From Deltaproteobacteria bacterium (GTDB taxonomy: Bacteria; Desulfobacterota; Binatia; HRBIN30; CADEER01), in assembly GCA_029262455.1 (NCBI GenBank), contig JAJCZJ010000020.1:325078-389077 (forward strand): DNA of 64,000 nucleotides. The letters are read 5' to 3'. Below, piece after piece: positions 21,009-49,114 of the stretch (position 1 is the stretch's first letter; every line of letters starts with the position of its first letter). The position numbers and the translations under genes are program-made. Under the pieces are notes generated by a model. The model had not been told where the DNA came from. It worked only from the letters and a program-made list of their open reading frames with translations, and searched no databases.

Positions 21009-21114
21009 GCGAAACGACCTTCCGCCGTCCAGCGCAGGATCGGCTCTTGCGAGCCGAACAATCGCCGAGGCCCCCGACGCACGTAACCCCTGGAAGCGTG
21101 AAATCATCCAGACT

Positions 21115-27472: not shown

Positions 27473-27497
27473 CTGCGGTTCAAATCCCTTGCTCGGC

Positions 27498-29405: not shown

Positions 29406-30590
29406 ATGCCGAAAGAAGAGATCGAGGTCGAGGTTCGGGTTCGGCTGCGCGGAGGGCATTCCTACGATCTCACCCTATCATCCAACTCCGCTCTTCTGCG
29501 CGACTTGATCACGACGCTCGGCGGGTCGAGAAACTCGGTCCAGCCCCGACTCTTCCAGCTACCCCTCGACGGCGGCCAAACCTCCGCAACATTCGCCAGC
29601 GATCAGATATCAGCGATCGACACCCGTCCGCCACTCGACTGGAACACCATCACAACTGGTACGGAAGAGCGGTCCGCAAAAAGCCTCGGCGATGGTCCGC
29701 CTCTCGTCCTACGCGGCGCCCGCAACATTACACGCCAGCCATCCTACGAGGCAGCAGAGCGACGAGCGCGGCGGCTGATGGAACCGTTCGTGGCGCATCG
29801 ACAAGCCCGCCGTGCCGCACTGAAGAGCACTTGCGACGAGCTCGGCGGAAACACCTTCGTCGTCTCCCCCTTCAACCAAGGCTTCGTCCCGCTACTGCGC
29901 AACTGGGCCGCATCCTGTGATCGTTCCGGCATCGACTGCCGCGCCAGGACGGTACTGTTTCCGACCGACAACGGCGCCGACACTGCAGCACGCGAGCTCG
30001 GATTCGCAACCCTCTTCGACGGCGTCTCGTTTGACGGTGCCCCGCGCGACGCTATCAAAGTCTACGGGGACGCCCACTTTGCCGATTGTGTCTTCGCCAA
30101 GCTCGGCGCAGCAATCGACATGCTCGCTCTCGGCTACGACATCCTACTCCAGGATATGGATCTCGTCTGGTTCAAAGACCCGCTCCCCGGACTCAAAACT
30201 CGAGCGATGGCCGACGATCTGGACTTACAGTTCATGCGCGACATGAATCCGCGCTTCCAGCCGCTGTACTACAACTCCGGCTTCGTATTTATGCGCAACA
30301 ACGAATTCACCCGCCAAACCTGGAACACCATCTTCGACGCCTTTGCGGCGGTCGTGTTCTACCGCTCCGATCAAACCGTCGTGAACCAGGTCGTCGACTG
30401 CTACAAAGAGCGAGGATTGCGAGCCGCCCGTCTTCCAGATCGCTACGTAGATGGACAACTGCTGATCCGGGCCCAAACAAAACGCCGGCCTCTACCGCCA
30501 GATTCGATCGTGGCTCACGTCAACTGGACCGGAAACCTTGCCGAGAAGATCGCTCGGCTCAAAGCACTCGAACTGTGGTTCATCGACTGA
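29406..30590 (+). CDS. Unassigned N-terminal ~75-aa domain fused to a GT77/PF03407-like nucleotide-diphospho-sugar transferase
   Basis: ORF 29367..30590, ATG 29406. ILLQDMDLVWFKDPLPGL (DxD) and PLYYNSGFVFMRN are typical of Nucleotid_trans/GT77. N-terminus is described in the findings. Confidence 0.65.
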   Translation: MPKEEIEVEVRVRLRGGHSYDLTLSSNSALLRDLITTLGGSRNSVQPRLFQLPLDGGQTSATFASDQISAIDTRPPLDWNTITTGTEERSAKSLGDGPPLVLRGARNITRQPSYEAAERRARRLMEPFVAHRQARRAALKSTCDELGGNTFVVSPFNQGFVPLLRNWAASCDRSGIDCRARTVLFPTDNGADTAARELGFATLFDGVSFDGAPRDAIKVYGDAHFADCVFAKLGAAIDMLALGYDILLQDMDLVWFKDPLPGLKTRAMADDLDLQFMRDMNPRFQPLYYNSGFVFMRNNEFTRQTWNTIFDAFAAVVFYRSDQTVVNQVVDCYKERGLRAARLPDRYVDGQLLIRAQTKRRPLPPDSIVAHVNWTGNLAEKIARLKALELWFID

Positions 30591-30673
30591 TCGATGCAAA
30601 TCACTTGCCGTGTCACAAGTTTTCCCCTTTTAAGCTTGACAGGAAGTCAGCGAACGTCGAGACTGCCTCCCGG

Positions 30674-31942
30674 ATGCCGACATTTGTTGGCGACACCTTA
30701 CCGGAGGCGCTTCGAGCCTTGGACTGCTCAAAATCCATCGAAACTCGTGTCCTGCCGCGCGCAGTGGCCTTCGGTCGCTTGCTTCTCGCTATCGCGGCGG
30801 CACTTGCCGTGGTGACAGCTCCGCATAGGGCGCCGGCAGCCCAGATCAAGTTCACGGGATTTGCCCAAATCAACGGCGCCCCGAGCGGACCGTTCGCAGC
30901 ATTCACAATGAATGAGGTCGTCGATATGACGATCACGATCGACGAGACTACGGCCGATTCGAATGGCGCCGGCGGCGCCGGATCATACAGCGATCCGACC
31001 TCGACCGCATTGTTCGAGGGACAGACCTCCGTGCAGATGGTCACTTTCACCGGCTTCGGCTTCGAACTCCTCGATTCGACGCGACTCGACCCGGCCAACG
31101 GCCTCGTCTCATCGAGCCCGAGCGCGGCGTACGTCGAGGACTGGGACCTGACCAACCTGTCGCCGATTTCGAACGTCGACGACCTTCCGACCATCATTGC
31201 CGAGTTGCCCAATGTGAACATTGGAACCGTCAGCGCCAACTTTTCGATACAACAACTGCCCGCCGGCCCGACCACGCTCTTCCTCGGGCTCAAGCCAACC
31301 GTCACGGTCACCGACTTTTGCGGCAACGGCATCGTCGAGGCCCCGGAAGCGTGTGACGATCCGGTGTGTTGCAACCCGACCTGCACCGCAATCATAGCGA
31401 ACGGAACTGAATGCCGCGCTTCAGCCGGCGTCTGTGATGTGGCCGAGACCTGCAGCAACGGCGCATGCCCCGTCGACGGCTTCGCCTCGATCGGCACCGT
31501 GTGCAACCCGTCATTGGGCGTCTGTGATCCAGAGGAAGTGTGCAGCGGCTCGAGCGCGGAATGCCCGCCGGACACGCTGACTCAGTTCACCTGTGGCACG
31601 ATCTGCGGCGCCCCGGTAGACGAGTGCGACGTTGCCGACATCTGCGTCTCCGGCAACGTCGATTGCCCACCGATGGGGACAATGTGCACACCGACACCGG
31701 TTCCGACTCCGACGCCCACGCCCGTTCCCGAAAATGGGTCCGGGGACGGGGCTTGCAGCGACGGTCTCGACAACGACAACGACAACCTCATCGACTGCGA
31801 CGACCCTGATTGCCTCGACGTCGAGGCATGCGAAACCGTGCACGCACCGACGCTCTCGCCAGGTGGATTGACGATCACCGTGCTCATCCTCGCCCTCATC
31901 GGCTTGTTGGCGATGGGGCGGGCAGTGCTCCGGAAGAACTGA
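30674..31942 (+). CDS. Secreted Cys-rich protein with disintegrin-like motifs, a PT linker, a DxDxD motif and an IPTL-CTERM-like tail
   Basis: Inner part of ORF 30086..31942. Start is ATG 30674 or GTG 30764 (MAFGRLLLAIAAALAVVTA signal). CGNGIVEAPEACDD, three copies of C-x5-CD-x2-E-x-C-x(4,5)-CP-x-D, TPTPVPTPTPTPVP, DGLDNDNDNLIDCDDPDC, APTLSPGGLTITVLILALIGLLAMGRAVLRKN. Confidence 0.7.
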   Translation: MPTFVGDTLPEALRALDCSKSIETRVLPRAVAFGRLLLAIAAALAVVTAPHRAPAAQIKFTGFAQINGAPSGPFAAFTMNEVVDMTITIDETTADSNGAGGAGSYSDPTSTALFEGQTSVQMVTFTGFGFELLDSTRLDPANGLVSSSPSAAYVEDWDLTNLSPISNVDDLPTIIAELPNVNIGTVSANFSIQQLPAGPTTLFLGLKPTVTVTDFCGNGIVEAPEACDDPVCCNPTCTAIIANGTECRASAGVCDVAETCSNGACPVDGFASIGTVCNPSLGVCDPEEVCSGSSAECPPDTLTQFTCGTICGAPVDECDVADICVSGNVDCPPMGTMCTPTPVPTPTPTPVPENGSGDGACSDGLDNDNDNLIDCDDPDCLDVEACETVHAPTLSPGGLTITVLILALIGLLAMGRAVLRKN

Positions 31943-31962
31943 CGGCCGAGGTGCCTGATCAA

Positions 31963-32469
31963 ATGAGCGACTCCAAAAAGACAAGAAAGCAGCTAATCGA
32001 AGAACTCGAACAACTTCGTGGTCAAGTCGCGCAGCGACAGCAGTCGCAGTCGGACAACAGTGCACCGGCGCTTGCCGGCGACGTTTCACGACGCACCGCG
32101 CTAAAGGTCGCCTGGACCGCGCCGGTCATTTTGGCAATCCCTCTCCAGGCCGATCGCTCTGGCGCCCAACCTCCGGTCGGAACGGTGGCCCCGGGCTGTC
32201 CCACCATGACCCCGACCAACGCGGCCCCTCCGACTAGCTCGCCGACCTTGTTCCCAACGACCGCTGAGCCGACGATTTCGCCGACTCAACCAGTCCCGAC
32301 CACCAGGTTGCCAACGTCCAGTCCCACGAACGACCCGACATTGCGTCCGACCACCAGCCCGACGATCCCTGCCCCGACGGCTATGCCGACGGCGAGGCCG
32401 ACCACCAGCCCGACGATCCCTGCTCCGACGCTTTCCCCGACCCCTGGTTTCCCGACGCTTTCCCCGTAA
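31963..32469 (+). CDS. Pro/Thr-rich small protein with a conserved N-terminal helix and an SRRTALK Tat-like motif; candidate substrate/precursor 1
   Basis: Inner part of ORF 31810..32469, ATG 31963 lies 20 nt after the upstream stop. MSDSKKTRKQLIEELEQLRGQV...DVSRRTALKVAWTAPVILAIPL, then about 90 aa with about 26 Pro, mostly as P-T. Paralog of 45413..45892. Confidence 0.7.
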   Translation: MSDSKKTRKQLIEELEQLRGQVAQRQQSQSDNSAPALAGDVSRRTALKVAWTAPVILAIPLQADRSGAQPPVGTVAPGCPTMTPTNAAPPTSSPTLFPTTAEPTISPTQPVPTTRLPTSSPTNDPTLRPTTSPTIPAPTAMPTARPTTSPTIPAPTLSPTPGFPTLSP

Positions 32470-32473
32470 TCAT

Positions 32474-32520
32474 CGGCGGTCAGCCCGCAATTCGGTTGAG
32501 AAACCGCCGTCGCTTTCTTC
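32474..32520 (+). terminator. Weak stem-loop directly after the candidate precursor gene (possible attenuator)
   Basis: CGGCGGT (32474-32480) pairs with ACCGCCG (32503-32509) across a 22-nt loop, followed by TCGCTTTCTTC. Not a canonical intrinsic terminator. Confidence 0.2.
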
Positions 32521-32611
32521 AGAGGACTTTCATCGTCCCCGCCCAATCGTGTCGAACACCATACCGGGCCTCATCCGCGTCAGCGCAAGCACCGTTCCGA
32601 AAAGCTAGCAA

Positions 32612-33976
32612 ATGTCGTCAGGAAACAGCGTAGAAACGCCGCCTACCAACTCTGGAGACTCCCCACGAGCACGGGGTGCGGCGGCTCGGCGGGTACGTCC
32701 GCGGCAGCGGGGCGGGCTCGAGACTTTCGAAGTACACAACGAAATCGTCGTGCTTCCCGGCGAGGGGGACCGCGTTTACGCGCTGAACGAGTCCGGTAAG
32801 GAGATCTTCGGCCTCTGCGACGGTCGCCACACCCTAGAGGCAATGGTCGACCAACTGGCGTCGAGGTACGACGCGCCTGACGTCGCGATCATGGGCGACG
32901 TGTCCGCAGCGATATTCGACCTCCACGGCCTCGGGCTGGTCGATATTCCTCCACCGGCTGACGCAGCTGCATCGATCGAGCCGCAGACCTCGGTCAAGGC
33001 ACGACCCAACGTGCGTTTCGTCTTCGGCATAGAGGACGTGCCCTATTTCCACTGGCAGCTTGCCATCCTCTTCGAGTCGCTCGTCGGCCAATTGCCCGAC
33101 GGTTGGGACGTCACCGTCGTCGTTTGCAACGACGAAGCACCGATTTCCGACGAGCTCATGAAGATCGTTTCCGAGTACGGTGTTCGCATCATGACCGGCA
33201 CCAGTCTCGCCGATCGCCACAGTCTCGACTTCGCCGGCGGCGGTGATCGCTACGTTCCGATGAACCGAGTCGAAGCACTCAGCGTCATTCGGCAAATCGT
33301 CGAACCCGAAGACGTCGTTTGCCTTCTGGACACCGACGTCTTCCTGTACGGCAACCTTCAAGAACAACTCTTCCCGACCGGCAACGCAATGGCCCGCAAC
33401 TGGATCATCTCCGAAGATCGGTACTTCGCGTTCTCGACCAACAACGAACGAGGACTGTCGCTCCCGAAGCTGCTCGAAGCCCTGGGGTGCGAGCAGGAGT
33501 TCAAACCCGGTGGCGTAGCGGTCTTCTTGACGGGAGAGACGATCCAACGCGAGCGCGTCATCCCCGACATTTTCCGTTTCCTTCAGGTTCTGTTCCTGCT
33601 CGGGAAAATCGTCGACGCACCAGCGCACGGCGTTTGGGTCGCCGAAATGGCATGCTTCGCAATGGCCATGTACCCCAACGAAATCGACTACGAGCTTCTC
33701 GACATCCCGCAATTCGCCGTCCAGGAGCAGCATGCTGAAGTCGCCCCCGACGGTTCGTTCTTCCACTACTACACCGACATCAACGACGGCGGGGGATCAA
33801 ATGGTCCGTTTTTCGAATCGCAGTGGCATAAACAGTTATTTCACCAGTCCAACATGCTCCTCGAAGACTTCGACAGCTTCAGAGTGAACGCCAAAGGCCG
33901 CCTCGAGCAGCGCTTCTTCGAAATCGCCGACAAGGCGAGAAAGCGCCTTTACGGCATCGAACGCACGGGCAAGTAG
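32612..33976 (+). CDS. PqqD-like domain fused to a GT95/GT96-like (HPAT / peptidyl-Ser galactosyltransferase-like) glycosyltransferase
   Basis: PqqD-like VYALNESGKEIFGLCDGRHTLEAMVDQLASRYD...AIFDLHGLGLV. GT part: FVFGIEDVPYFHWQLAILFESL, VVCLLDTDVFLYG, VWVAEMACFAMAMY. Confidence 0.6.
   Translation: MSSGNSVETPPTNSGDSPRARGAAARRVRPRQRGGLETFEVHNEIVVLPGEGDRVYALNESGKEIFGLCDGRHTLEAMVDQLASRYDAPDVAIMGDVSAAIFDLHGLGLVDIPPPADAAASIEPQTSVKARPNVRFVFGIEDVPYFHWQLAILFESLVGQLPDGWDVTVVVCNDEAPISDELMKIVSEYGVRIMTGTSLADRHSLDFAGGGDRYVPMNRVEALSVIRQIVEPEDVVCLLDTDVFLYGNLQEQLFPTGNAMARNWIISEDRYFAFSTNNERGLSLPKLLEALGCEQEFKPGGVAVFLTGETIQRERVIPDIFRFLQVLFLLGKIVDAPAHGVWVAEMACFAMAMYPNEIDYELLDIPQFAVQEQHAEVAPDGSFFHYYTDINDGGGSNGPFFESQWHKQLFHQSNMLLEDFDSFRVNAKGRLEQRFFEIADKARKRLYGIERTGK
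32717..32947 (+). other. PqqD-like (RRE-type) domain, copy 1, N-terminal
   Basis: aa 36-112 of ORF 32612; pattern L.LN..g..IW.LCDG..T..EI...L matches PF05402 by eye. Confidence 0.6.
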
Positions 33977-33980
33977 AGCC

Positions 33981-34598
33981 GTGTTGTCAATGTTCGATAC
34001 GCCCGCACACCTCGAGCAGCAGACGCGCGAGCAACAGGCCGCAGCCCGGTACTGCGGGCTCGGCTTCAAAAAGGCCACGCTGCCCTCCGAGGTCTTGCAA
34101 CGGTTGCGCCAACACCTGGAAACGAACAGCCGCCGATTCCGCGCCGAGGAGCCCATCGACTACCTCGTCAACCCGGACCCCGGGAAGATTCCGGCCCTTT
34201 ATTTCGAGGACAAAGAATTCAACGCCACCCTAAGTCGCGAGCTACAAGGATTGCACGAAGAGTGGGCCGGAAGGAGTCTGACCGAGTCCGCCTGCTACGG
34301 CATCCGCGTCTATCAACGCGGCAGCTTTCTCTACAACCACGTCGACCACACCGACACACACATCATCAGCTCTTCGATCTGCGTCGACCACCGCCTCGAC
34401 AAGCCGTGGCCCCTCTACGTCGAGGATATCGACGGCAATCCCCACCAGATCGATCTCGACCCTGGCGACATACTGTTCTACGAGGGAGCCCGCCTGCGAC
34501 ACGGCCGTGCCTATCCACTCGAGGGTGACTACTACGCATCCATTTTCGTCCACTATCGACCCGCAAATCTCTGGTCTTCGCGGCTCGTTGGCACCTAG
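33981..34598 (+). CDS. 2OG-Fe(II) oxygenase, prolyl 4-hydroxylase-like
   Basis: YGIRVYQRGSFLYNHVDHTD (HxD) and distal GDILFYEGARLRHGRAYPLEGDYYASIFVHYRP. Lies 4 nt after the upstream stop. Confidence 0.7.
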   Translation: MLSMFDTPAHLEQQTREQQAAARYCGLGFKKATLPSEVLQRLRQHLETNSRRFRAEEPIDYLVNPDPGKIPALYFEDKEFNATLSRELQGLHEEWAGRSLTESACYGIRVYQRGSFLYNHVDHTDTHIISSSICVDHRLDKPWPLYVEDIDGNPHQIDLDPGDILFYEGARLRHGRAYPLEGDYYASIFVHYRPANLWSSRLVGT

Positions 34599-34640
34599 TC
34601 GCCGATTTCGTTAAGAACACCCGAAAACGCAGTATTACTC

Positions 34641-36644
34641 GTGAGACATCTACTCTATACAAACTACCAGTCCGGTCAGTCGGGTTTGAGCAACGGCATC
34701 ATGTCGATCGAGCTGGGCGTGGTCCTCGCGTTCCTGACGAATCGGTTTCTCCTGCTCGATGGCAACATCTCCCCGCCGGCCAATATCGTGTCGTACGGCG
34801 ATCGAGTCGACAACAGCCAGCCGAGCCGCGTCACCGACCTGATCGACCTACCGGTCGCCTGGAGTGAGCCAGGAAGCGTCGACGTGTCCAAGTTGCCGTT
34901 CCTCGAATTGAGCGACGACCATCTGGGGAGTGCCGCGTTCTATGTCCCCGGCACCGTCGACATCCGATCCGCCGACGCGGAAGCGTTCGCCAACGGCAGG
35001 ACAGTGTGGCTCAACGCTGGCGGCTCGCTCGACGAGATCCCGGTGCTGCGAGTGTCCGAGGATCACAGCAAAGACAATCTTCGATACAATCTCAACTACT
35101 ACTCGTACTTCTTCTACCTCGACGACGAAACGCGTCGCTCCGTCTACCGCATGCTCGAGCGGATGCAACCAAAGCAGGACCTAGGGGAGCTGGCGAAGCG
35201 CGTCGCCGGCGATCTCGGAGCATTCAACGCGGTGCACTTGCGACGCGGTGACTTCAAGGTGACCTATGGAGTCACCACCCTCGACCGTCAACCTTGGGAA
35301 GCAATCGAGGCGCTCGAGCATCACTTCAAACGCGACGACACTCTGGTCTTCGTGACCGACGAGCGCGACGACCCGTTCTTCGACGAGATCAAGAAGGTCT
35401 ATACGCATCACGTATTCATCGATCACCACATCCTCGACGACTACGAGAAGGACTTCGCCGCATTGCAGCACCGCGACAGCATCGCCTTGGCCTATCTTTC
35501 CCAGCTCGTGGCGGCCGAATCCGCCGACTTCATTGGCACCATGACCAGCACGTTCACCGCCATCATCCAGCGCTACCGCGGCAATCGCGGCAAGGCCGAG
35601 AGTTTCAAGTACCTTTGGAACGAGCTCCCGGACGACGGCGATCGTCTCGAACGCGGCCGTCATCCGGTTAGTGAGTGCGTCCCGATGGACCGCGGCATGA
35701 TGGTCGAAGAGTCGTCGGGTCCGTACTCATGGAATCGCTACAACAAGAGGATCGCCGCCAACTGGATGCGCGAATGGCCCGAAAGTTTTCTGACCCAAGA
35801 GAGCCTCGAAACCGGCAAATTGACGACCGGGGCCAGCCCCGTTGCCCGCCCCATCGTTCTGGTTCGTCCCGAAAGGACGAAAGTCGAGGTCGCGTTCGAC
35901 GGCTTGAGCATCATTCTAAACTCGCAAGTGCCTCGCGTTGCGACCAAGCTGAGCGAAGCCTTCGAATCACGCCAAGCTGCGAGTCCAGCGAACGTCATCG
36001 GGGAGTTCGAGGTTGCTGAAGAAGACGGCGACTTCCGTCTTCTGCAACGCGGCCAGGAAATCGCCACCGCAGCAAGCTACGAGGAGTTGGCGCGCACGTT
36101 AAAACTCCGCATGGTGCCGATCTTTGTCGGTGCGCGCCGCCGGCACGTGTGGCTGGAAGCTTTTTCCTTCCGTAGAGCAGGCCATGCGCTGGTTCTCGCC
36201 GGCGACATGGGTCCTCCATCGGACTGGCTGCCGGACGCCATGTGCTCGAACGGCTGGGAGCTGCTGTGGGACGAGATCGTCCCGATCCGCCTGGAAGACT
36301 GTACCGTCACACCGTTCGGCCGCACGACCTGGCCGAAGGGCGCAGCCCTGCGCATCGACCGTACGCCCTGTCGCGTCAGCGGCCTGATCGTCACCAGCCG
36401 ACAAGTCCAGCGCCGCGACACCTTGACCGTCTTGTCCCCAGCCACCGGGGTGGCGGAGTTGATCGGCCGCTGCGTCGACTTCCGCACCGACCGCAAGCGG
36501 GCGGTAGAACGCCTGTGCAAGCTGGTCGAGAAACGAACCGTAGGCAGACTGTCCTTCAGCCGCGCCGAGACCGCTGTCGATCTCCTCACGCGCCCCTTCC
36601 TCGACGCGGAGCGTGAGTCCGCCCACGGTACAAAGTCTGCATGA
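34641..36644 (+). CDS. O-fucosyltransferase-like (PF10250-type) GT domain fused to an HprK-related-kinase-like domain with a degenerate P-loop
   Basis: GLSNGIMSIELGVVLAFLTNRFLLL, FNAVHLRRGDF, ADFIGTMTSTFTAIIQRYRG. C-terminal half: VEVAFDGLSIILNS...HVWLEAFSFRRAGHALVLAGDMGPPSDWLPDAMCSNGWELLWDEIVPI. Confidence 0.55.
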   Translation: MRHLLYTNYQSGQSGLSNGIMSIELGVVLAFLTNRFLLLDGNISPPANIVSYGDRVDNSQPSRVTDLIDLPVAWSEPGSVDVSKLPFLELSDDHLGSAAFYVPGTVDIRSADAEAFANGRTVWLNAGGSLDEIPVLRVSEDHSKDNLRYNLNYYSYFFYLDDETRRSVYRMLERMQPKQDLGELAKRVAGDLGAFNAVHLRRGDFKVTYGVTTLDRQPWEAIEALEHHFKRDDTLVFVTDERDDPFFDEIKKVYTHHVFIDHHILDDYEKDFAALQHRDSIALAYLSQLVAAESADFIGTMTSTFTAIIQRYRGNRGKAESFKYLWNELPDDGDRLERGRHPVSECVPMDRGMMVEESSGPYSWNRYNKRIAANWMREWPESFLTQESLETGKLTTGASPVARPIVLVRPERTKVEVAFDGLSIILNSQVPRVATKLSEAFESRQAASPANVIGEFEVAEEDGDFRLLQRGQEIATAASYEELARTLKLRMVPIFVGARRRHVWLEAFSFRRAGHALVLAGDMGPPSDWLPDAMCSNGWELLWDEIVPIRLEDCTVTPFGRTTWPKGAALRIDRTPCRVSGLIVTSRQVQRRDTLTVLSPATGVAELIGRCVDFRTDRKRAVERLCKLVEKRTVGRLSFSRAETAVDLLTRPFLDAERESAHGTKSA

Positions 36645-37630
36645 CAGACCAAGCAACCGCACCGCGCCAGATCGACATCCGCATCTCCACCATCGGCGGG
36701 CACGAGTATCGGTTGAATCTCCGCGAAGACGCCGTCCATTTGCGCGACCTCTTTACTCGATTCGTCAACCGACCGGCGACTGGGGCTGTCCGAGCTCCTG
36801 AATTCATCCAACTGCCCCTCGACGGAGGCAACGCTTCCTGCACGATCGCCGTCGATCAGATTGTGTCGATCGTCACCACGCCACCAGTCGTCATCGAAGT
36901 GCAACAACCCGCCGTCGAGCCAAACGTAATTCCAGATGTGCCGGCAGTGGTCGCGCCACCCCAGATCCGGCGCGCACACTACACGGTGATCGACGACTTT
37001 CTCACCGTCGATGAGCACCGAGACATGCTGGCGTTGGCATTGAGCGAGAAGGACAGCTTCGAACCCGGTACGGTGCAGGGTGAACCGAGTCCACACCGAC
37101 GAAACAGCGTCATCATGAACTTCGCAGACTCGGCGCACGGAACACTGCTGACAAGTCGTCTGCTCGTTTGGTTTCCATTGATCGCAAAGGCGCTGAAGGA
37201 ACCACTGTTTCCGCTCAAGACGGTCGAGTCGCAACTGACCGCCGCCAACGACGGAGACTACTATAAGCCTCACCTCGATACCGACGGGAAGACCCCCGAT
37301 TTCCGGGTCATCGCGTGCGTCTACTATTTCTTCCGCGAGCCAAAAGGGTTCACGGGCGGCGACCTACGCCTCTATGATTCCATCGAAACAGGTGGCGAAA
37401 TCTGTCAGGCGGATTCCTTCCAAGACATTCGGCCGGCAAGCAATCGCTTGGTCGCATTCACCTGCGAGACCTTCCACGAGCTGCTCGCGACTCGCTGCCC
37501 GTCCAAGGATATCGAAGACAGTCGTTTTGCGGTGACCGCGTGGTTTCACCGCAGCGGCGCACCGGACCCCGACGCCAAGTTCGGTTGGGGACATTATCGT
37601 TGCGGCGAAGTTCCGGAGGCACTGCGGTGA
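36641..37630 (+). CDS. Unassigned N-terminal ~80-aa domain fused to a 2OG-Fe(II) oxygenase (PF13640-like)
   Basis: ATGA overlap with the upstream stop. YYKPHLDTDG (HxD), GGDLRLYD, NRLVAFTCETFHEL, RFAVTAWFH. Confidence 0.7.
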   Translation: MTDQATAPRQIDIRISTIGGHEYRLNLREDAVHLRDLFTRFVNRPATGAVRAPEFIQLPLDGGNASCTIAVDQIVSIVTTPPVVIEVQQPAVEPNVIPDVPAVVAPPQIRRAHYTVIDDFLTVDEHRDMLALALSEKDSFEPGTVQGEPSPHRRNSVIMNFADSAHGTLLTSRLLVWFPLIAKALKEPLFPLKTVESQLTAANDGDYYKPHLDTDGKTPDFRVIACVYYFFREPKGFTGGDLRLYDSIETGGEICQADSFQDIRPASNRLVAFTCETFHELLATRCPSKDIEDSRFAVTAWFHRSGAPDPDAKFGWGHYRCGEVPEALR

Positions 37631-37802
37631 GCAACGCGAGGGCTCGCTGCTCGAGACCACCGATCCTCGCGCTTTCGACCAAAGGTAGCGAAGGCGCGCC
37701 CCCCGCCGCACCGGGTACTGTCATCAGCAGCCGGCGAGTCAGCCACCTCGCTTTCGCAGGCTTGACCGAAGCCCCCGGGATCAGAGGCAGAGTGCGTTTG
37801 TC

Positions 37803-41942: not shown

Positions 41943-41977
41943 TCGAACGAGCCGTTCCTCCAAGCCGGATCCATACA

Positions 41978-44900
41978 GTGAAAAAGGGCACAATCCACGA
42001 TCTCTTCTCCCGCACCGCTTGCGTCGTGTCCGACAGGCACCGATTCATCTATTTGACGGCGCAAAACGCCACGTCTTCCCTGAAGGCCGAGCTGTCGAAC
42101 GAGCACTGCGGCGGCGTTGTCCTCGCCCGCGCACAGGTGGCTGATAAACTCTGGAACCAATACTTTACGTTCGCCTTCCTGCGCGACCCGCTGACGCGCT
42201 TTCTCTCCGCCTATCAGGAAGTGTCTCTGCACATGGAGCGTGACAAACTCGAACCGCGCCCTTTCGGCCGGATGCCCGACGGCCTCGATCGCTTTCAGGC
42301 ATTTCTCGCGGACGTCGAGCAGAACGGTCCGTGGAACGAGCACATTGCACTCCAGCTAGCCTTCGTCGAGCGCCGAAGAATCGACTTTTGGGGGCTCGTC
42401 GAAACGCTGCAAGACGACTTCCAACAAATCTACACCCGGCTGGGATTGGGGACCTGTCCCGTTCTGCCAAAACGCCGCTCTCGCAGCGGCCGTGAGGAAA
42501 AGGACGGCATCTCGCGCTTCGCCTTCCATCCGGAGGACCTCGATGCGACGACAATTGAGCGCATCTACGACCTCTACCGTGAGGACGTCTTGCTGATTCG
42601 AGCGGTTCGCCCCGACGCACCTGAAATGCAGCCGCACTCAACCCGTGCCGCACCGCCCCCCGGAATGGTGCAGGTGGCGATCGCCCTGGCCAACGGCGGC
42701 GAATACTCCCTCGAACTTCCGCCCGGCCAACCAGAGCTGGGCGCTCTGCAAGCTGTGGTATCACCACAACAATCCGATGGACGTTTTCTCGGCCCGCAAG
42801 TTCTGCAGGTTCCACTGCGTGGTGGCAATTCCGCGCTGACGTTTTCCACGCAGCACCTCGTTCGTCTCGAGCTACGCCCCCCCGACGCCCGAGAACTGCG
42901 CCGAATCGAGGCGCCGGCCACCGGCACGGGCAACTCCGGAGTGAATCTAATAAACGTCGGGAACAAGCGGCCGCCAACCGAGGACCCATCGAGCAATATC
43001 GACGAGGCGCATCTCGGTGGCTACATTCGTGCGGCCAATACACCGATTCTCCACAGCGCCGCAGGCCCACACGGGGACCGGGGAACCTGGAATCCGCTGC
43101 TGTGGCGTTGGGCAATCGAAGATCTCGACGTGCGATCAGTGATCGATATCGGATGCGGCGAGGGACACGCCGCCGGATTTTTCTCCGACGGCGGGTGTGA
43201 AGTGCTCGCGCTCGATGGCAGCCTTCAAGCGCGCTATTCCAGCGTTGTTCCAGATCGCCACGTCGTACACGACTTCGTCGAGGGACCTTTCGTCCCAGAG
43301 AAAAGCTTCGACATGGCCTGGACCTGCGAGTTCGTCGAACACGTCGAGGCGCGTTTTCTCCACAATTTCCTGGCTACGATCGCATCGAGCCGCAAGTACG
43401 TGATGATGACGTTCGCCAGCCCGACACAAACAGGCTGGCATCACGTCAATTGCCAAGAACAGGGTTACTGGGTCGATCAGTTGGGACGCCTCGGGTTTCG
43501 CCTGGACGACGATCTAACCGAGAGAGGCCGAGCCTTGGCTCACTCTCATTTTCGCGAACGTGGCCTGGTCTTCGTCCGGCACCATCGAAAAGGCGAGTCA
43601 TCGAAGTCCACAGAACCGTCGCTGCGCGCGACTGCCGAGAGTCACTGTCTCGACCCGCTGCCGGTCCAATCCATGCAGGTCGCACAGCGCGAGAGCGATG
43701 CCTTCTACCTGTTTGTCGACATCTTCGTGCATCCGACCGCACCGAGAATCGTGGCGATCTCACCACCCTATGGCGAAGACTGGAATCCTAACGTTGTCGG
43801 CATCGACTACGATGCCGTCGACCTTGTATTCGGTGACATACGCGTCCGCGGCCGCTGCCTGCGGCACCGTCTCGACTCCTGGGAGCCTTGCATGCTTCTC
43901 GAGTTCGAGGACGAAGACCTAACAGAGCGCATTCGGGCCAACGACGAGATCAACGTCACGATCGAGGCCGGCTCGCATTCGTCGTCCTTCGTCCTGACGA
44001 CCCGCCCAGCGCCAGCCTACGATGTCGCAATGAGCCTCGTCGTACGCAACGAAAACCGCTGGATCCGCACGTTTCTCGACTACTACCTCGACTGCGTCAA
44101 AGCCGACCACGTCTTCATCTACGACAACGGAACGTCGGAACAAGACCAGCTGCTTTCCATTCTTCACCCGTACCGAGAGCGCGGGCAAGTGACGTACATC
44201 CCGTGGGATTTTCGCTGGCGCAACCGCATCGACCGCAAGATGATCGGCCAACCGACACAGGAGGCTCACTCCCTTGCAAGATTCGCAAACACCGGGTGGA
44301 TCGGCTTTCTCGACATCGACGAGTTCCTGCGCTTGCCGCACAGCACCCTGCCACAATTTCTCGCTCGCTTCGCGTCCGCGGAGGTCGACGGACTCTCGTT
44401 CGGTATCCGGTGGTTTTCTTACGAGGGCCCGCTTGCACTCGATGAGATTACGAGTGTGCCACTGCAATTCCTCCACTCGCGCCGCAATGAGCTCGGCCGA
44501 AAACGGCAGAAGTTCTTCGTCAAAGGCGGCGGCTCGAAGTTTCTTCGCTTGCATTGGCTCGAAGACGGAGGTCGCGAACTGCCCATCGACGACACCGAGA
44601 TCTACTTTCACCACTACGATCAACGTCCCGGCCGTTTCGAAGAAGGAAAGCAAATCGGAGGAGCGCGCGACGAATACATGCTGCGCTTCGCCGACCAGCT
44701 CTCGCGCCCCGAGCGGCACAGAGCCCCTCTAACCGAGAGAGGATGGATCACCCACATCAACTCTTCGATCGAACGCGCCGAACGCGACACCTCCAAACTC
44801 ACCCCGGAAGTCCTCGCCGTCGACGGCATGTGCGGGCGCTACACCCGTCACTTCTACAACAACCTCTGCAGCTTCGGAGGATGCCGCTACCTCGAGATCG

Positions 44901-45385
44901 GCAGCTATCACGGGGCCAGCACCTGCGCGGCAATCTTCGGCAACGACGTATCCGCCGTGTGCATCGACAATTGGACACAGTTTCACGGCAAGCGAAGCCG
45001 CTTCGAGGATGCCCTACGACGCTTCCGAGGAGATCGCTCGGTCCGAGTCATCGAGCAAAACTGCTTCGAAGTAGACGCCTCAAGCCTCGGCCCATTCGAC
45101 ATCTATCTCTACGATGGCGACCACAGCCAGCAGAACCAGTACCGAGCCTTGCAGCACTTCGTTCAGACGCTGGCCAAGCTCGCCGTAGTCGTCATCGACG
45201 ACTGGAATCGTCGGCATATCCGTCGGGGGACACAGGACGCGATTCGGGACCTCGAACTCGATGTAATCTTCGACCGAGAGATCCTACTGCCAACCGACCA
45301 GACGGCGGATGAAAACCGTGACGCTGGAGCGCGAACTTGGTGGAACGGACTCTACATCATGCTCGTTCGCAGTAGAACGCAGTAG
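41978..45385 (+). CDS. 1135-aa five-module enzyme: sulfotransferase, shared ~75-aa domain, class I SAM-MTase, GT92/Glyco_tranf_2_4-like, second SAM-MTase (Methyltransf_24-like)
   Basis: FTFAFLRDPLTRFLSAY; MVQVAIALANGGEYSLELPP...LQVPLRGGNSALTF; VIDIGCGEGHAAGF; SLVVRNENRWIRTFLDYYL...FIYDNGTS...FLDIDEFL; YLEIGSYHGAST...IYLYDGDHS...VVIDDWN. GTG start has a weak SD. Confidence 0.65.
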   Translation: MKKGTIHDLFSRTACVVSDRHRFIYLTAQNATSSLKAELSNEHCGGVVLARAQVADKLWNQYFTFAFLRDPLTRFLSAYQEVSLHMERDKLEPRPFGRMPDGLDRFQAFLADVEQNGPWNEHIALQLAFVERRRIDFWGLVETLQDDFQQIYTRLGLGTCPVLPKRRSRSGREEKDGISRFAFHPEDLDATTIERIYDLYREDVLLIRAVRPDAPEMQPHSTRAAPPPGMVQVAIALANGGEYSLELPPGQPELGALQAVVSPQQSDGRFLGPQVLQVPLRGGNSALTFSTQHLVRLELRPPDARELRRIEAPATGTGNSGVNLINVGNKRPPTEDPSSNIDEAHLGGYIRAANTPILHSAAGPHGDRGTWNPLLWRWAIEDLDVRSVIDIGCGEGHAAGFFSDGGCEVLALDGSLQARYSSVVPDRHVVHDFVEGPFVPEKSFDMAWTCEFVEHVEARFLHNFLATIASSRKYVMMTFASPTQTGWHHVNCQEQGYWVDQLGRLGFRLDDDLTERGRALAHSHFRERGLVFVRHHRKGESSKSTEPSLRATAESHCLDPLPVQSMQVAQRESDAFYLFVDIFVHPTAPRIVAISPPYGEDWNPNVVGIDYDAVDLVFGDIRVRGRCLRHRLDSWEPCMLLEFEDEDLTERIRANDEINVTIEAGSHSSSFVLTTRPAPAYDVAMSLVVRNENRWIRTFLDYYLDCVKADHVFIYDNGTSEQDQLLSILHPYRERGQVTYIPWDFRWRNRIDRKMIGQPTQEAHSLARFANTGWIGFLDIDEFLRLPHSTLPQFLARFASAEVDGLSFGIRWFSYEGPLALDEITSVPLQFLHSRRNELGRKRQKFFVKGGGSKFLRLHWLEDGGRELPIDDTEIYFHHYDQRPGRFEEGKQIGGARDEYMLRFADQLSRPERHRAPLTERGWITHINSSIERAERDTSKLTPEVLAVDGMCGRYTRHFYNNLCSFGGCRYLEIGSYHGASTCAAIFGNDVSAVCIDNWTQFHGKRSRFEDALRRFRGDRSVRVIEQNCFEVDASSLGPFDIYLYDGDHSQQNQYRALQHFVQTLAKLAVVVIDDWNRRHIRRGTQDAIRDLELDVIFDREILLPTDQTADENRDAGARTWWNGLYIMLVRSRTQ

Positions 45386-45412
45386 AAACGCCGCAAATAT
45401 CGAAACCGGGAA

Positions 45413-45892
45413 TTACTCCTCGCCCTTGGTTTCTTTTCCCACGGGAGCCGGTCGGCCCTCGTCGTCATCCGAAGCAATGAGCTTTTTAGCACCGAAGCCA
45501 AAGAGCGCCGCTGCGGCCACAGCCGCGGCGCCGCCTGAAACCACAGGCGCATCGACTGCTGCCTGAAAGGCGGTCGGAACCGCCGTACTGGGAAGGCCCG
45601 GATCGAGGACCGTCGGGACCTGCGTCGGTGCGGCAGTAGGATTGAGGCAAAGTGACGGCGAATTGGTACATTGCGTCGTCCCAGCTTCGACAGGCGCGAC
45701 GAATCCAAGATCAGACGAGACCGGTACCGATAAGATCACCGGCGTTACCCAGGCAATCTTGAGCGCCGAGCGCCTTGAAATATCGTCGGAAAAAGTCGGC
45801 CGCGCCGCCTTCCCGTCCGTCACCAGCTCGCCCCGCAGCCGCTCGATCTCCTCGAGAAGCTCCTTTTTCGTCTTCGTTCCGTCACCCGCCAT
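45413..45892 (-). CDS. Pro/Thr-rich small protein, paralog of 31963..32469, with a C-terminal hydrophobic anchor and acidic tail; candidate substrate/precursor 2
   Basis: ORF 45413..45997 trimmed to ATG 45892, which has a GGAGAGGG SD upstream. MAGDGTKTKKELLEEIERLRGEL...DISRRSALKIAWVTPVILSVPV, P/T/S/A-rich middle, GGAAAVAAAALFGFGAKKLIASDDDEG. Confidence 0.65.
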   Translation of the reverse strand: MAGDGTKTKKELLEEIERLRGELVTDGKAARPTFSDDISRRSALKIAWVTPVILSVPVSSDLGFVAPVEAGTTQCTNSPSLCLNPTAAPTQVPTVLDPGLPSTAVPTAFQAAVDAPVVSGGAAAVAAAALFGFGAKKLIASDDDEGRPAPVGKETKGEE

Positions 45893-46048
45893 TATAGACC
45901 CTCTCCAATGCTGCCGCTGCCATAGCAAGAATCCGACCCAAATCCCAGGCCTGCGACATCGATTTCCTGGATTCGCGGTGAGACACCCCCTGCGCACTCG
46001 TAGCAGCGGCTCGGCAGCCTATCCCGATCAAGTGGGAGAATGGGCGTG

Positions 46049-46744: not shown

Positions 46745-46759
46745 GGGGATTCTATGTGT

Positions 46760-46878
46760 GTGATTGGTGACTGGTGATTCGTGACTGGTGACTGGTGATT
46801 CGTGACTGGTGACTGGTGATTCGTGACTGGTGACTGGTGATTCGTGACTGGTGACTGGTGACTGGTGACTGGTGATTG
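46760..46878. repeat. 17 tandem heptamers GTGAYTS, with a 21-bp super-repeat GTGACTGGTGACTGGTGATTC
   Basis: Counted by hand from the sequence: 119 bp = 17 x 7, lying between the GT60-like stop (46893) and the sulfotransferase ATG (46744). Confidence 0.9.
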
Positions 46879-46892
46879 GTTGGGCAAAAGTT

Positions 46893-47900
46893 CTACACAC
46901 CGGCGCCGGCCTGGTACTCTTCGAAAGTGACGCAGCTCTCCCAGTCGGACGGCGACCGGATTGTCACTGGGTCGGGGTTCGCGCCACTAAACGCATCCGG
47001 ATGCGCGCGTTTGGCTCGGAAGTCAAAGCCCGAAAAAATCTCGTAGTCCCGCAAGGTCCGCACCCGACCGAAACCGTACGGTCCGGGCAGCGGTGATTCA
47101 TAGCTCGAGAGCAGCTGTTCCAAACGGGCAAACGCCTCGCGGTTGCGGCGCTCGACGACGTCTTCCCCCTGCTCCCAATGGCGCCGCGGCGGCCCGTCGT
47201 TGTGCTGCATGTGCCATGCCACGACTTCCGTTGGAAGAAAGAAGTCGTACCCCCAGGTGTACGAACGAATGGTCACATTCAGCTCTTCGCCCCAATAGTA
47301 TTGTCCGGGATCCTGCGGCACCTCGACATTCCAGATGCCGCGCGAGAACGCGAAGTTGCCGTTGACAAACCGTGTACGCCCCGGCTTCTTGACGTTGGGG
47401 GCTCCAAAGTCGAACCACGGCGCCCAATGGTCCGACGCGCTCCAGCCGCTCACCTTGGTCGTCGGCACACCCATTTCAGTACGACGCTGCGGCACACCAT
47501 CCTCGTCGTACCAGAATAGGGGAGCATTCATGCTGAGAACGGGTTTCTCACTGGGGAGAGCCTCCAGCATCTCGATCAGCCGCGCGTCCCAGTCGGGCTC
47601 GAGCTTCATATGGGAATCGATCTGCAGAGTGTAGGGTTCACCTCGCCACAGAGACTGCGCAATATTACGCGCCCAGGGGCCGCCCTGGCTTGCCGCAATC
47701 GTCGTATCCACAAACCGAAACCGCGGATCTCGGCGAAAATCCTCCAACGGCACCGGCGCTTTTGGGTCACGCTGCCAGCAAATTCCGAAACGCAGCGAAT
47801 CTGGAGCACTTGCCGTTTCGATCGCGTCACGCAAGGTGCGCGGCAACTCGGGGTCCGTGTACGACGCGATCGCGACGAAGATCTGAGGGTGGGAAGCCAC
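46893..47900 (-). CDS. GT60 Gnt1-like (PF11397) glycosyltransferase, paralog of 38930..40156 without the basic extension
   Basis: MASHPQIFVAIASYTDPEL, LQIDSHMKL, and the C-terminal GFGRVRTLRDYEIFSGFD parallels GLGRSRTVADWAEITGLD. Confidence 0.65.
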   Translation of the reverse strand: MASHPQIFVAIASYTDPELPRTLRDAIETASAPDSLRFGICWQRDPKAPVPLEDFRRDPRFRFVDTTIAASQGGPWARNIAQSLWRGEPYTLQIDSHMKLEPDWDARLIEMLEALPSEKPVLSMNAPLFWYDEDGVPQRRTEMGVPTTKVSGWSASDHWAPWFDFGAPNVKKPGRTRFVNGNFAFSRGIWNVEVPQDPGQYYWGEELNVTIRSYTWGYDFFLPTEVVAWHMQHNDGPPRRHWEQGEDVVERRNREAFARLEQLLSSYESPLPGPYGFGRVRTLRDYEIFSGFDFRAKRAHPDAFSGANPDPVTIRSPSDWESCVTFEEYQAGAGV

Positions 47901-48115
47901 GATTCATACTCTTGCCGAAGCCAAGGTCGCACCGCAAGTGACAGAGACACCCGTCTATAGCCGCTCCACCGCTTGAATCTTGGTCGAGGACTCGGGATTC
48001 CAAACAACCTCCTCATGGCTCCAAGATCGGGATCTTCGCAGACAATCGACCCGCAAGGTTGCCCGAGCCACTGCGAGCGCGGCCGCAAACCCACCCGATC
48101 CACTCGACCCCCGGA

Positions 48116-49114
48116 TCAGACCTTGTGGGCGAGCCCCTTTTCCCGCGCCGTGTACTGATCGAAGATCCAGGCGTAGGTTTTCTCGATACCGTCGCGCAAT
48201 GAAGTAGACGGAGCCCAACCGAGCTTCTCAATGATCATCGTGTTGTCGCTGCTCCGCCCGTCGACACCCTTCGGAGCATCCAGTTTATAGGTTCGCTCGA
48301 GCCGAATTCCGGCAATCTCTTCGACGACATCGACCAGATCATTGATGGACACTGTCTCACTTGAGCCGAGATTGATCGGGTCCGAGACACTGCTCTCCAT
48401 CAGCCGACGAATTCCCTCGATGCAGTCATCGATGTACGTAAACGAGCGACCCTGGTTTCCATCGCCCCAGATTTCAATGCGATGATCGCCGCGGACTTTT
48501 GCTTCGATCACCTTTCGACAGATCGCCGCGGGTGCCTTCTCGCGACCACCGTCCCAGGTCCCATGAGGCCCATACACATTGTGGAAGCGAGCCACTCGCG
48601 TCCGCATCCCAAAGTCCTCCATGAAATGGCGGCACATACGCTCGGAGAACAGCTTCTCCCACCCGTACCCATCTTCCGGCATCGCCGGGTACACGTCGTC
48701 CTCTTTCAAGGGAGTGACATCATAGCCACGTTGCTTGTCCGCCCTGTATACGCATGCCGACGACGCGTAGAAAAAGCTCTCGGTGCCGCACACATTCGCA
48801 GCTTCCAACAGATGGGTATTGATCAAGACGTTGAGCATGCACAGAGCCTTGTTGCTCTCGATGAAGCCCATGCCGCCCATATCACAGGCCATCTGGTACA
48901 CGACTCCGACCCCCTCGCAGACATCCATGCACGGACTCCGCAACCGCAGATCCAGCTGCCGATTGTCGACGTCGTCGAAGCACTGGTACCACTCTTCGAT
49001 CGGTTTGAGATCGACCGCGCGTAGGTTGGGCTCACCACGCTGGCGCAAGTCGGCAACAATCTGCCCCCCGATAAACCCGCCCGCGCCTGTGACTAGAACA
49101 GTAGAAGCAACCAT
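48116..49114 (-). CDS. GDP-mannose 3,5-epimerase-like extended SDR
   Basis: VTGAGGFIGG, ACDMGGMGFI, FFYASSACVY, RFHNVYGPHGTWDGGREKAPAAICRK, EIWGDGNQGRSFTYIDDC, GVDGRSSDNTMIIEKLGWAP. Collinear with plant GME as I recall it. Confidence 0.8.
   Translation of the reverse strand: MVASTVLVTGAGGFIGGQIVADLRQRGEPNLRAVDLKPIEEWYQCFDDVDNRQLDLRLRSPCMDVCEGVGVVYQMACDMGGMGFIESNKALCMLNVLINTHLLEAANVCGTESFFYASSACVYRADKQRGYDVTPLKEDDVYPAMPEDGYGWEKLFSERMCRHFMEDFGMRTRVARFHNVYGPHGTWDGGREKAPAAICRKVIEAKVRGDHRIEIWGDGNQGRSFTYIDDCIEGIRRLMESSVSDPINLGSSETVSINDLVDVVEEIAGIRLERTYKLDAPKGVDGRSSDNTMIIEKLGWAPSTSLRDGIEKTYAWIFDQYTAREKGLAHKV

Follow-up and report, generated by a model that had tools for sequence, protein, structure and literature searches.

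A bacterial gene cassette predicted to hydroxylate and O-glycosylate a dedicated Pro/Thr-rich envelope protein before its export

To our knowledge, glycosylated hydroxyproline (Hyp), as it occurs in the cell walls of plants, in the walls of algae and on protist Skp1, passes for an invention of eukaryotes, and HPAT/GT95, GT60, GT77, GT92 and O-FucT are counted among the eukaryotic or Golgi families. What, then, is made by a bacterial locus of 20 kb in which relatives of such enzymes are encoded together with a prolyl hydroxylase and two small Pro/Thr-rich proteins? The locus occupies positions 29406-49114 of a 64,000-nt stretch of DNA from a Binatia genome; by the window we mean this whole stretch. 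The answer that we favour, with a probability of roughly 60%, is that the locus encodes enzymes which, guided by a leader, hydroxylate prolines in a dedicated envelope protein and O-glycosylate it in the cytoplasm; the protein would then be exported, probably by the twin-arginine translocation (Tat) pathway. The chemistry is throughout a prediction from sequence. An earlier note, made from the letters of the window, had likewise proposed that the Pro/Thr-rich proteins are modified in the cytoplasm by enzymes recruited through contacts between PqqD domains and a leader, and are then exported. This proposal is supported by the enzyme families, by the co-conservation of the small proteins with the enzymes, and by an export-like segment present in the substrates and absent from the enzymes. 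To the earlier picture we add a Tat-like motif, a novel domain as a second kind of fused module, an HprK-like domain and MBOAT genes that recur next to the cassette.

Looking at the listed and translated open reading frames (ORFs), 11 plus-strand genes (29406-45385) face four minus-strand genes (49114-45413), which is the convergent layout described in the earlier note and gives 15 locus proteins. The genes that carry our argument are listed here; RRE stands for RiPP recognition element, RiPP for a peptide that is made ribosomally and modified post-translationally, and 2OG for 2-oxoglutarate.

31963..32469, plus strand: precursor A, 168 aa; N-terminal helix, SRRTALK followed by VAWTAPVILAIPLQA, Pro/Thr-rich region; no C-terminal anchor
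45413..45892, minus strand: precursor B, 159 aa; leader as in A (SRRSALK), shorter Pro/Thr/Ala-rich region, C-terminal transmembrane (TM) segment (113-135), charged tail
32612..33976, plus strand: core enzyme, RRE (PqqD) and GT-A glycosyltransferase (GT); PqqD PF05402 52.2 bits; invariant DTD motif
33990..34598, plus strand: core enzyme, probable second Fe(II)/2OG oxygenase, 202 aa; invariant H117, D119, H171 and R173 in 29 orthologs
34641..36644, plus strand: core enzyme, O-FucT-like GT-B (HLRRGDF) with C-terminal HPr-kinase-like domain; PF10250 25.5 bits (cut-off 31.5)
36641..37630, plus strand: core enzyme, novel domain (residues 10-80) and PHD/PhyA-type protein prolyl 4-hydroxylase (P4H); 2OG-FeII_Oxy_3 57 bits
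37803..38930, plus strand: core enzyme, HPAT (GT95)-like GT-A with C-terminal RRE (PqqD); PqqD 51.0 bits
38930..40156, plus strand: core enzyme, GT60 (Gnt1 / pp-alpha-GlcNAcT family); PF11397 153 bits
46893..47900, minus strand: second GT60, conserved companion of the core; PF11397 150.4 bits

We surveyed gene neighbourhoods, as the earlier note had suggested, by one scan of species-representative genomes, which gave 35 related loci (designated by L-numbers) onto which the domains of the window were mapped. About 24 of them, from at least seven major lineages, share a core of fixed order: the small ORF, RRE plus GT-A, the 202-aa oxygenase, O-FucT-like plus HprK-like, novel domain plus P4H, HPAT-like plus RRE, and GT60, with a second GT60 usually close by. 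The hosts are Betaproteobacteria (Nitrotoga), Gammaproteobacteria (Elongatibacter sediminis CH-27, Lysobacterales, Thiohalocapsa), Alphaproteobacteria (Tepidamorphus sp. 3E244, Rhodobiaceae), Polyangia (Myxococcota), Binatia, Thermodesulfobacteriota, Nitrospirales, where the order is rearranged, and the source of a TARA ocean scaffold; Elongatibacter sediminis CH-27 and Tepidamorphus sp. 3E244 are cultured strains. Because the same genes recur in the same order in some two dozen unrelated genomes, the locus is not a chance assembly. The survey also bears on the Pro/Thr-rich ORFs, whose co-conservation with the enzymes had been singled out as a check: in every locus that covers the region (more than 20), a homolog recognized by its leader immediately precedes, in the same orientation, the gene for the RRE/GT-A protein, the first RRE enzyme.

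The two precursors of the window are true paralogs (39% identity over the first 112 residues, E 1e-21), as had been claimed. They had also been placed at the inner ends of the two operons, which holds for 45413-45892 but not for 31963-32469, the third plus-strand gene. A search with the leader found these two copies and no other in the window, and neither of the two leaders had a match in a database of 5.8 billion proteins. The family was recovered from the DNA of the related loci by BLAST and then with a hidden Markov model (HMM) of its own leader, whose E-values range from 6e-33 to 1e-3 (3.6e-24 for A, 6.8e-22 for B); the weak matches near 1e-3 are those of the alphaproteobacterial loci. Members measure 100-350 aa, the E. 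sediminis ortholog of A having 177 aa. The leader consists of an amphipathic N-terminal helix (residues 1-25), in most lineages of the type K-T-K-E-Q-L-L-A-E-I-E-A-L-R-x-Q-L and followed by a variable linker, and of the SRRTALKVAWTAPVILAIPLQA segment, which includes W, P, V and I; the motif of the family reads [ST]-R-R-x-A-L-[KST]-x-W-[VI]-A-P-V-[IV]-L-[ST]-[IVL]-P. Beyond the leader, core length and repeat unit vary between loci. The repeat region of the family is rich in Pro (18%), Thr (17%) and Ala (18%), with SPT, APT, TPT and FPT as its commonest tripeptides, and precursor A contains 29% P, 26% T and 20 PT dipeptides. The C-termini are lineage-specific: a TM segment with an acidic or charged tail in 45413-45892 and many others, and none in 31963-32469. 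Two gammaproteobacterial precursors (L006:3924-4931 and L017:4363-4953) end in IPVELT[DE]FEV[DN]G. Those of Myxococcota end in GSARA (L010, L012, L013, L035) or GAARA (L014, L020), and three of these six (L012, L013, L014) have a Cys just before the tail; the myxococcal type of C-terminus, a Cys with a hydrophobic segment behind it, may be akin to MYXO-CTERM.

How would such proteins leave the cytoplasm? In 22 precursors, [ST]RR was found 18 times, in the form SRRxALK in the window and its closest relatives. It is followed by an uncharged stretch that contains two prolines, measures 11-31 residues (all but one of them fall within 15-31) and has a mean hydropathy of 1.1-2.1, mostly 1.4-1.9. After this stretch 18 of the 22 have a basic residue, and most then show an AxA-like site of the TAQAQ or TAHAV type. 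At the level of motifs, the RR segment is likely to be Tat-like, with an n-region of the Tat type, a weak h-region, a basic 'Sec-avoidance' c-region and an AxA-like site, and these hallmarks make Tat the likely route. The AxA-like site suggests cleavage by the general signal peptidase.

The hydroxylation step is best represented by 36641-37630. By sequence profile, its closest match among solved structures is the Skp1 hydroxylase PhyA of Dictyostelium (E 9e-14), its top structural matches (PPHD, TaPHD, Tpa1, OGFOD1, PhyA and PHD2) are all protein prolyl hydroxylases, and fold searches with the whole model were dominated by 2OG oxygenases. The earlier note had counted two HxD...H 2OG oxygenases. 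The count is secure for this protein and weaker for 33990-34598, where it depends on the HxD...H...R pattern of the orthologs: the best hit of its ortholog profile among solved structures was PiuC, at a non-significant E of 1.7, and an hhalign comparison of the two cassette oxygenases was not significant, although the HxD motifs were aligned.

Among the enzymes for the glycosylation steps are members of GT60, a family that adds alpha-GlcNAc to the Hyp of Skp1. Both Gnt1/GT60-like proteins noted earlier were recovered with PF11397, at 153 and 150 bits; 38930-40156 has orthologs of about 300 aa with 65-80% identity, and in most loci an ortholog of 46893-47900 (57-75% identity) is encoded close to the cassette. 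The N-terminal extension of 38930-40156 (38930-39300; 125 aa, Lys/Ala/Thr-rich and histone-H1-like) is specific to the window and absent from the orthologs, and a 15-bp repeat is present in 3.3 copies at 39096-39143. The O-FucT-like assignment is weak in the window protein (25.5 bits for a cut-off of 31.5) but is upheld by its orthologs, 22 of 22 of which match PF10250. HPATs are enzymes that arabinosylate Hyp. Two GT95/96-like domains had been claimed: 37803-38930, for which over 200 homologs (40-61% identity) are known, gains some support through orthologs that pass the HPAT cut-off. For the other GT-A domain (32612-33976), weak HPAT matches were obtained with 7 of 21 orthologs, and since hhalign between the two putative HPAT-like domains was not significant, the claim is only partly supported. 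A GT8-like fold in the cassette resembles that of the Skp1 alpha-GalT (Gat1) and of GlyE, an enzyme of serine-rich-repeat glycoproteins (SRRPs). When solved structures were searched by sequence profile, no meaningful match emerged for the GT-A domain of 32612-33976, for 33990-34598, for the N-domain of 40149-41942 (see below) or for GT60. Altogether, profile and structure searches support nearly all of the families claimed, with the HPAT-like, O-FucT-like and GT25-like domains and the second 2OG oxygenase recognized weakly or through their orthologs.

What distinguishes these enzymes is the modules fused to them. The three PqqD-like domains reported earlier are all present (PF05402 at 52.2, 51.0 and 43.7 bits in 32612-33976, 37803-38930 and 40149-41942, respectively). 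RREs, which share the PqqD fold, bind RiPP leaders. For 32612-33976, which has 182 homologs, an AlphaFold2 model built from 45 homologs (pLDDT 84.5) has two domains, and the RRE superposes on the leader-binding B1 proteins of lasso peptides at 1.8 A. The C-terminal third of 34641-36644 (about 35850-36640) is HPr-kinase-C-like (TIGR04352, 27.7 bits; HprK structure 1ko7, E 0.024; Hpr_kinase_C in three orthologs). Its Walker A motif is intact (GPWGxGKS) only in the alphaproteobacterial orthologs (L018, L019, L023). The window and most lineages have a degenerate form (GDMGPPSD), a hint of a pseudokinase retained for binding. The third module is a domain of about 75 residues that occurs in three locus proteins (residues ~5-85, at 29406-29680; residues 10-80, at 36641-36900; residues ~230-310, at 42650-42930). 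The three copies can be aligned with one another, none has a match in Pfam or NCBIfam, and the topology, modelled with confidence in 36641-37630, is beta-beta-alpha-beta-beta-beta. A divergent RRE was considered and rejected: hhalign gave a probability of 0.1% and the topology differs. An exhaustive search of a library of 1.8 billion proteins found 120 representatives at E<=1e-3. Ten fused proteins were checked, and all nine with Pfam matches bear cassette enzymes in shuffled orders, for example novel domain plus 2OG plus PqqD, O-FucT plus novel domain plus 2OG, and novel domain plus methyltransferase plus GT92 plus methyltransferase. As judged from these alignments and fusions, the domain is real and specific to the cassette system.

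Not all of the 20-kb locus belongs to the conserved core: in the loci compared, the GT77, GT25-like and GT92 domains, the sulfotransferases and the methyltransferases are lineage-specific accessories. The window encodes these enzymes and one that would supply a nucleotide-sugar:

29406..30590, plus strand: accessory, novel ~75-aa domain (residues ~5-85) and GT77-type nucleotide-sugar transferase; PF03407 56.8 bits
40149..41942, plus strand: accessory, N-domain, RRE (PqqD) and GT25-like domain; PqqD 43.7 bits; GT25 17.5 bits, below cut-off
41978..45385, plus strand: five-domain accessory of 1135 aa, namely sulfotransferase, novel domain, S-adenosylmethionine-dependent methyltransferase (SAM-MTase), GT92 and SAM-MTase; Pfam Sulfotransfer_2, Methyltransf_23, Methyltransf_24, PF01697
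46049..46744, minus strand: accessory, sulfotransferase; PF03567 34.2 bits
48116..49114, minus strand: GDP-mannose 3,5-epimerase of the short-chain dehydrogenase/reductase (SDR) type, predicted to supply GDP-L-galactose or GDP-L-gulose; plant GME structures 317 bits, E 1.8e-93

Most of what had been said of these genes was confirmed, namely the GT77/PF03407-like protein (56.8 bits), the two sulfotransferases (Sulfotransfer_2 is matched twice), the GT92-like domain (PF01697) lying between the two SAM-MTase domains (Methyltransf_23 and Methyltransf_24), and the epimerase-like SDR, whose best solved relatives are the plant epimerases at 317 bits. For the GT25-like domain the window protein stays below the cut-off at 17.5 bits, and the claim stands through a stand-alone ortholog of 34% identity that has a precomputed PF01755 match; orthologs of 40149-41942 occur in only five loci. 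The domains of 41978-45385 are found in other fusion orders elsewhere. In 13 loci an epimerase ortholog of at least 44% identity is encoded close to the cassette; GDP-L-galactose, a product of GDP-mannose 3,5-epimerases, is the 6-hydroxy analogue of GDP-L-fucose.

Where does the chemistry take place? 2OG oxygenases, nucleotide-sugar-dependent transferases and enzymes dependent on PAPS (3'-phosphoadenosine 5'-phosphosulfate) or SAM function in the cytoplasm. We found no N-terminal hydrophobic stretch, and hence no TM or signal segment of this kind, in any enzyme of the locus, in agreement with the earlier impression that they lack signal peptides. The enzymes would be soluble and cytoplasmic, depending on nucleotide-sugars, 2OG/Fe(II), PAPS or SAM, and would be recruited to the leader probably by three kinds of module: the RRE on three glycosyltransferases, the novel domain, which would bring in the prolyl hydroxylase, the GT77 enzyme and the sulfo/methyl/GT92 enzyme, and the HprK-like domain on the O-FucT-like enzyme. 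The PHD/PhyA-type P4H, probably together with the second 2OG oxygenase, would hydroxylate prolines in x-P-T. The HPAT-like, GT8-like, GT60 and O-FucT-like transferases would then attach the first sugars of O-glycans to hydroxyproline and/or threonine; GDP-L-galactose from the linked epimerase is a plausible donor for the O-FucT-like enzyme. The target of GT60 may be Thr rather than Hyp, since GT60 enzymes start mucin-type glycosylation in protists by placing alpha-GlcNAc on mucin Thr/Ser (PMC8724618). In this genome GT77, GT25-like and GT92 enzymes would extend the glycans, and sulfotransferases and methyltransferases would decorate them. The bulky product would be exported, likely by Tat, and cut by signal peptidase at the AxA-like site; B would be retained by its C-terminal tail anchor and A released, and O-linked acyl groups may be added to the glycan outside the cytoplasm by a membrane O-acyltransferase acting with its membrane partner.

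The last two proteins belong to the surroundings of the cassette, which hold the following genes:

24941..27571, minus strand: 876-aa protein with a single N-terminal TM segment (TM-like residues 57-81); probable accessory acting outside the cytoplasm with MBOAT
27498..28907, minus strand: MBOAT (DltB/AlgI-like membrane O-acyltransferase), probable accessory; PF03062 100 bits; TIGR04091 DltB 155 bits, below cut-off
16733-24116: three YfhO-family GT-C membrane proteins around one GT2; the GT2 resembles polyprenyl-phosphate-sugar synthases (ArnC-, PgfS-like)
30674..31942, plus strand: Cys-rich protein with disintegrin-like and acidic double-disulfide repeats, PTPVPTPTPTPVP linker and C-terminal TM segment, secreted or membrane-anchored; PF00200 34.9 bits (just under cut-off), NF033662 repeat

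Homologs of MBOAT and of the 876-aa protein, the latter without a match in Pfam or NCBIfam, recur beside the cassette in four other lineages (the 876-aa protein in L001, L005, L006 and L021, MBOAT in L005 and L021). In the window they stand directly upstream and divergent (24941-28907), and this recurrence suggests O-acylation after export. The YfhO/GT2 group looks like an extracytoplasmic glycosylation set; as it does not recur beside the cassette in the related loci, we rejected it as part of the core. The Cys-rich protein, with TM-like segments at residues 26-51 and 391-421, is encoded between the GT77 gene and that of precursor A and has no counterpart in the related loci, being specific to this window. 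Between the minus-strand GT60 and sulfotransferase genes, a 21-bp unit is repeated 5.8 times at 46760-46880 (a 7-bp GTGACTG in 17 copies, 96% matches); given an upstream GTG start, it would read as SPVTSHE repeats. GC content is flat at about 0.60 over the whole window, and no Shine-Dalgarno-like sequence was seen ahead of the gene starts of the locus ORFs.

Several observations weigh against leader-guided modification followed by Tat export. Some assignments fall under the curated thresholds in the window proteins: HPAT gives 12 bits (E 0.13) for 37803-38930, with orthologs P0017 and P0025 at 27.2 and 25.4 for a cut-off of 23.9, O-FucT 25.5 and GT25 17.5 bits, and 33990-34598 has no Pfam match of its own, four of its 29 orthologs matching PF13640 weakly. 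The precursors are far larger than classical RiPP precursors, and the N-terminal helix is missing in three alphaproteobacterial precursors although both types of module are present there. As to the signal, Pfam TAT_signal was compared with ten leader segments and no family was matched at E<=10, TIGR01409 did not match the full precursor, and KR or KK replaces RR in alphaproteobacterial precursors. The W-x-x-P-V-[IV] motif is far more conserved than the h-region of an ordinary signal, and the divergent precursors L028:1-195 (EWHRPVIEHIV) and L029:14810-15196, on the minus strand (RWTKPVVDSVL), keep W-x-x-P-V-[IV]-x-x-[IVL] despite charges. Given this unusual conservation and its survival with charged neighbours, W-x-A-P-V-I-L may be the best candidate for a recognition sequence, instead of or besides an export signal. 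A last point comes from variants of the locus in Acidimicrobiia, where the Pro/Thr-rich substrate itself starts with a PqqD/RRE domain (98.4% hhalign probability and E 9e-15 against the RRE enzyme family of the window):

L030:12523-13623: RRE-substrate ORF
L034:4146-4934, minus strand: RRE-substrate ORF
L036:12993-13613: RRE-substrate ORF
L037:4760-5572: RRE-substrate ORF

Behind the PqqD domain these proteins continue with SRRxLLxKLG, a hydrophobic segment and (PxPT)n, and the enzymes of the same loci have neither PqqD nor novel domains. With the RRE on the substrate and the modules gone from the enzymes, the polarity of recruitment appears reversed. Such a fusion fits enzyme docking at least as well as leader binding.

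These variants are the starting point of another explanation, namely that the PqqD and novel domains dock the enzymes into one complex and that the RR/W-x-A-P-V-I-L segment is an uncleaved signal-anchor (Sec/YidC or Tat) whose helix stays in the cytoplasm. Besides the Acidimicrobiia, where the sole PqqD is on the substrate and the enzymes lack both modules, it draws on the shuffled fusions, including novel domain, 2OG and PqqD in one chain, on the lack of a Tat profile match and on an N-terminal helix that is dispensable in some lineages. Against it stand the superposition of the RRE on leader-binding lasso B1 proteins and the nature of the hydrophobic stretch. In several precursors this stretch is short, at 15-17 residues; it has two prolines within it, and in most precursors a basic residue and an AxA-like site come after it, features that suit a cleaved signal better than a TM anchor. 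We consider this explanation rather unlikely. If the cassette were instead a classical RiPP cluster, the leader would be removed and a relatively small, diffusible, glycosylated and possibly sulfated peptide (a signal or an antibiotic) released. RRE domains and a precursor with leader and variable core beside tailoring enzymes are indeed RiPP hallmarks, the HprK-like domain is also found in lasso-peptide clusters (the TIGR04352 match), and short cores without an anchor exist (31963-32469, L001 with ~40 residues, L018, L019). However, the cassettes of the related loci contain no conserved dedicated protease or ABC exporter, the leader holds a signal of the general-export type, and many precursors have repeat domains of 90-260 residues that end in a TM segment with a charged tail or in lineage-specific sorting-like tails. 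Such long repeats and C-terminal anchors or tails point to retention at the envelope; a released peptide seems to us distinctly improbable.

That the locus makes a lipid-linked polysaccharide or glycolipid (exopolysaccharide, O-antigen, capsule), with the Pro/Thr-rich ORFs as unrelated envelope proteins nearby, could be argued from its many glycosyltransferases, nucleotide-sugar epimerase, sulfo- and methyltransferases and MBOAT, and from the upstream YfhO GT-C and polyprenyl-phosphate-sugar-synthase-like GT2 genes. The earlier note had seen no Wzx, Wzy or initiating phosphoglycosyltransferase genes, and this holds for the 15 proteins of 29406-49114 searched with Pfam and NCBIfam, where Wzz and ABC exporter families had no match either, though the three YfhO proteins, the GT2 and MBOAT lie just upstream; in the Pfam-annotated orthologous loci, too, all of these families were without a match. 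Nothing in the making of a polysaccharide would call for a protein prolyl hydroxylase or for three peptide-recognition domains. The small ORF, moreover, is conserved along with the enzymes and keeps its place, and YfhO/GT2 are not conserved with the cassette; we hold this explanation to be very improbable. Leader-guided hydroxylation and O-glycosylation before export remains the reading that we prefer.

Does the predicted system correspond to a known one? With the Skp1 pathway of Dictyostelium and Toxoplasma (PhyA, Gnt1/GT60, PgtA, AgtA/GT77 or Glt1/Gat1) it shares soluble cytoplasmic enzymes, a PhyA-type P4H, GT60, a GT77-type enzyme in the window and the GT8-like fold resembling Gat1. It differs in its substrate, a Pro/Thr-rich repeat protein with an export signal and many expected sites instead of one, in the RRE, novel and HprK-like modules of its enzymes and in the position of GT77 outside the conserved core; no Skp1-like protein or PgtA (GT2/GT74) was matched among the locus proteins in Pfam or NCBIfam. 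The hydroxyproline-rich glycoprotein pathway of plants and algae (P4H, HPAT/GT95, RRA/XEG113 GT77, SGT1/GT96; extensins, arabinogalactan proteins (AGPs), CLE peptides) offers the same combination of prolyl hydroxylase, HPAT-like enzyme and GT77, and repetitive substrates with non-contiguous Pro beside Ser, Thr or Ala, as in AGP glycomodules; its plant enzymes are lumenal and membrane-anchored, whereas those of the locus are without N-terminal hydrophobic segments. RiPP pathways (the lasso B1 proteins TbiB1 and TfuB1; PqqD of PQQ) resemble the cassette in the PqqD fold fused to tailoring enzymes, the adjacent precursor with conserved N-terminus and hypervariable C-terminus, and the lasso-type HprK-like domain. 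The precursors here are larger (108-350 residues) and bear signals for export and anchoring, a dedicated leader protease or exporter is missing, and a second, non-RRE module is present. A tailoring set of P4H, GT60, HPAT and O-FucT in RiPPs is not reported in the literature searched, and in a 2025 survey of RREs, fusions of an RRE to a glycosyltransferase (PF00535) receive no more than a passing mention. SRRPs (Fap1, GspB, PsrP; accessory Sec) are alike in overall strategy, but the repeats here are x-P-T and not Ser, a prolyl hydroxylase, RREs and a Tat-like signal are present, the hosts are mostly Gram-negative, and no GtfA/GtfB or SecA2/SecY2 family was matched among the locus proteins. In our estimation the system is far from any described kind; each of the likened systems has a defining feature that seems to be missing here. 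The earlier statement that no bacterial system of this composition is known still holds in the full-text literature searched, which leaves most subscription journals outside its reach.

A wider proposal, which we put forward tentatively and hold to be doubtful as a whole, is that the cassette is a widespread bacterial counterpart of eukaryotic Hyp-rich and mucin-type glycoprotein synthesis, drawing on identical enzyme families (PHD/PhyA-type P4H, GT60, HPAT/GT95, GT77, O-FucT, GT92), located in the cytoplasm, targeted in RiPP style, proofread by masking of the export signal, and a candidate source or sister of the Skp1 and hydroxyproline-rich glycoprotein toolkits. Masking is speculation: because the recognition motif overlaps the Tat-like signal, binding of the enzymes would hide that signal until glycosylation is done, a built-in proofreading of the kind exerted by the Tat chaperones TorD and DmsD. 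Since two cultured strains carry the cassette, these predictions are directly testable. If they are true, the cassette would define a new class of bacterial envelope glycoprotein and would extend leader recognition of the RiPP type from small peptides to large exported proteins, with a second, undescribed recruitment domain. It would also be a natural case of heavy cytoplasmic glycosylation before export, useful for glycoengineering, and would provide a concrete test of the origins of the eukaryotic pathways.

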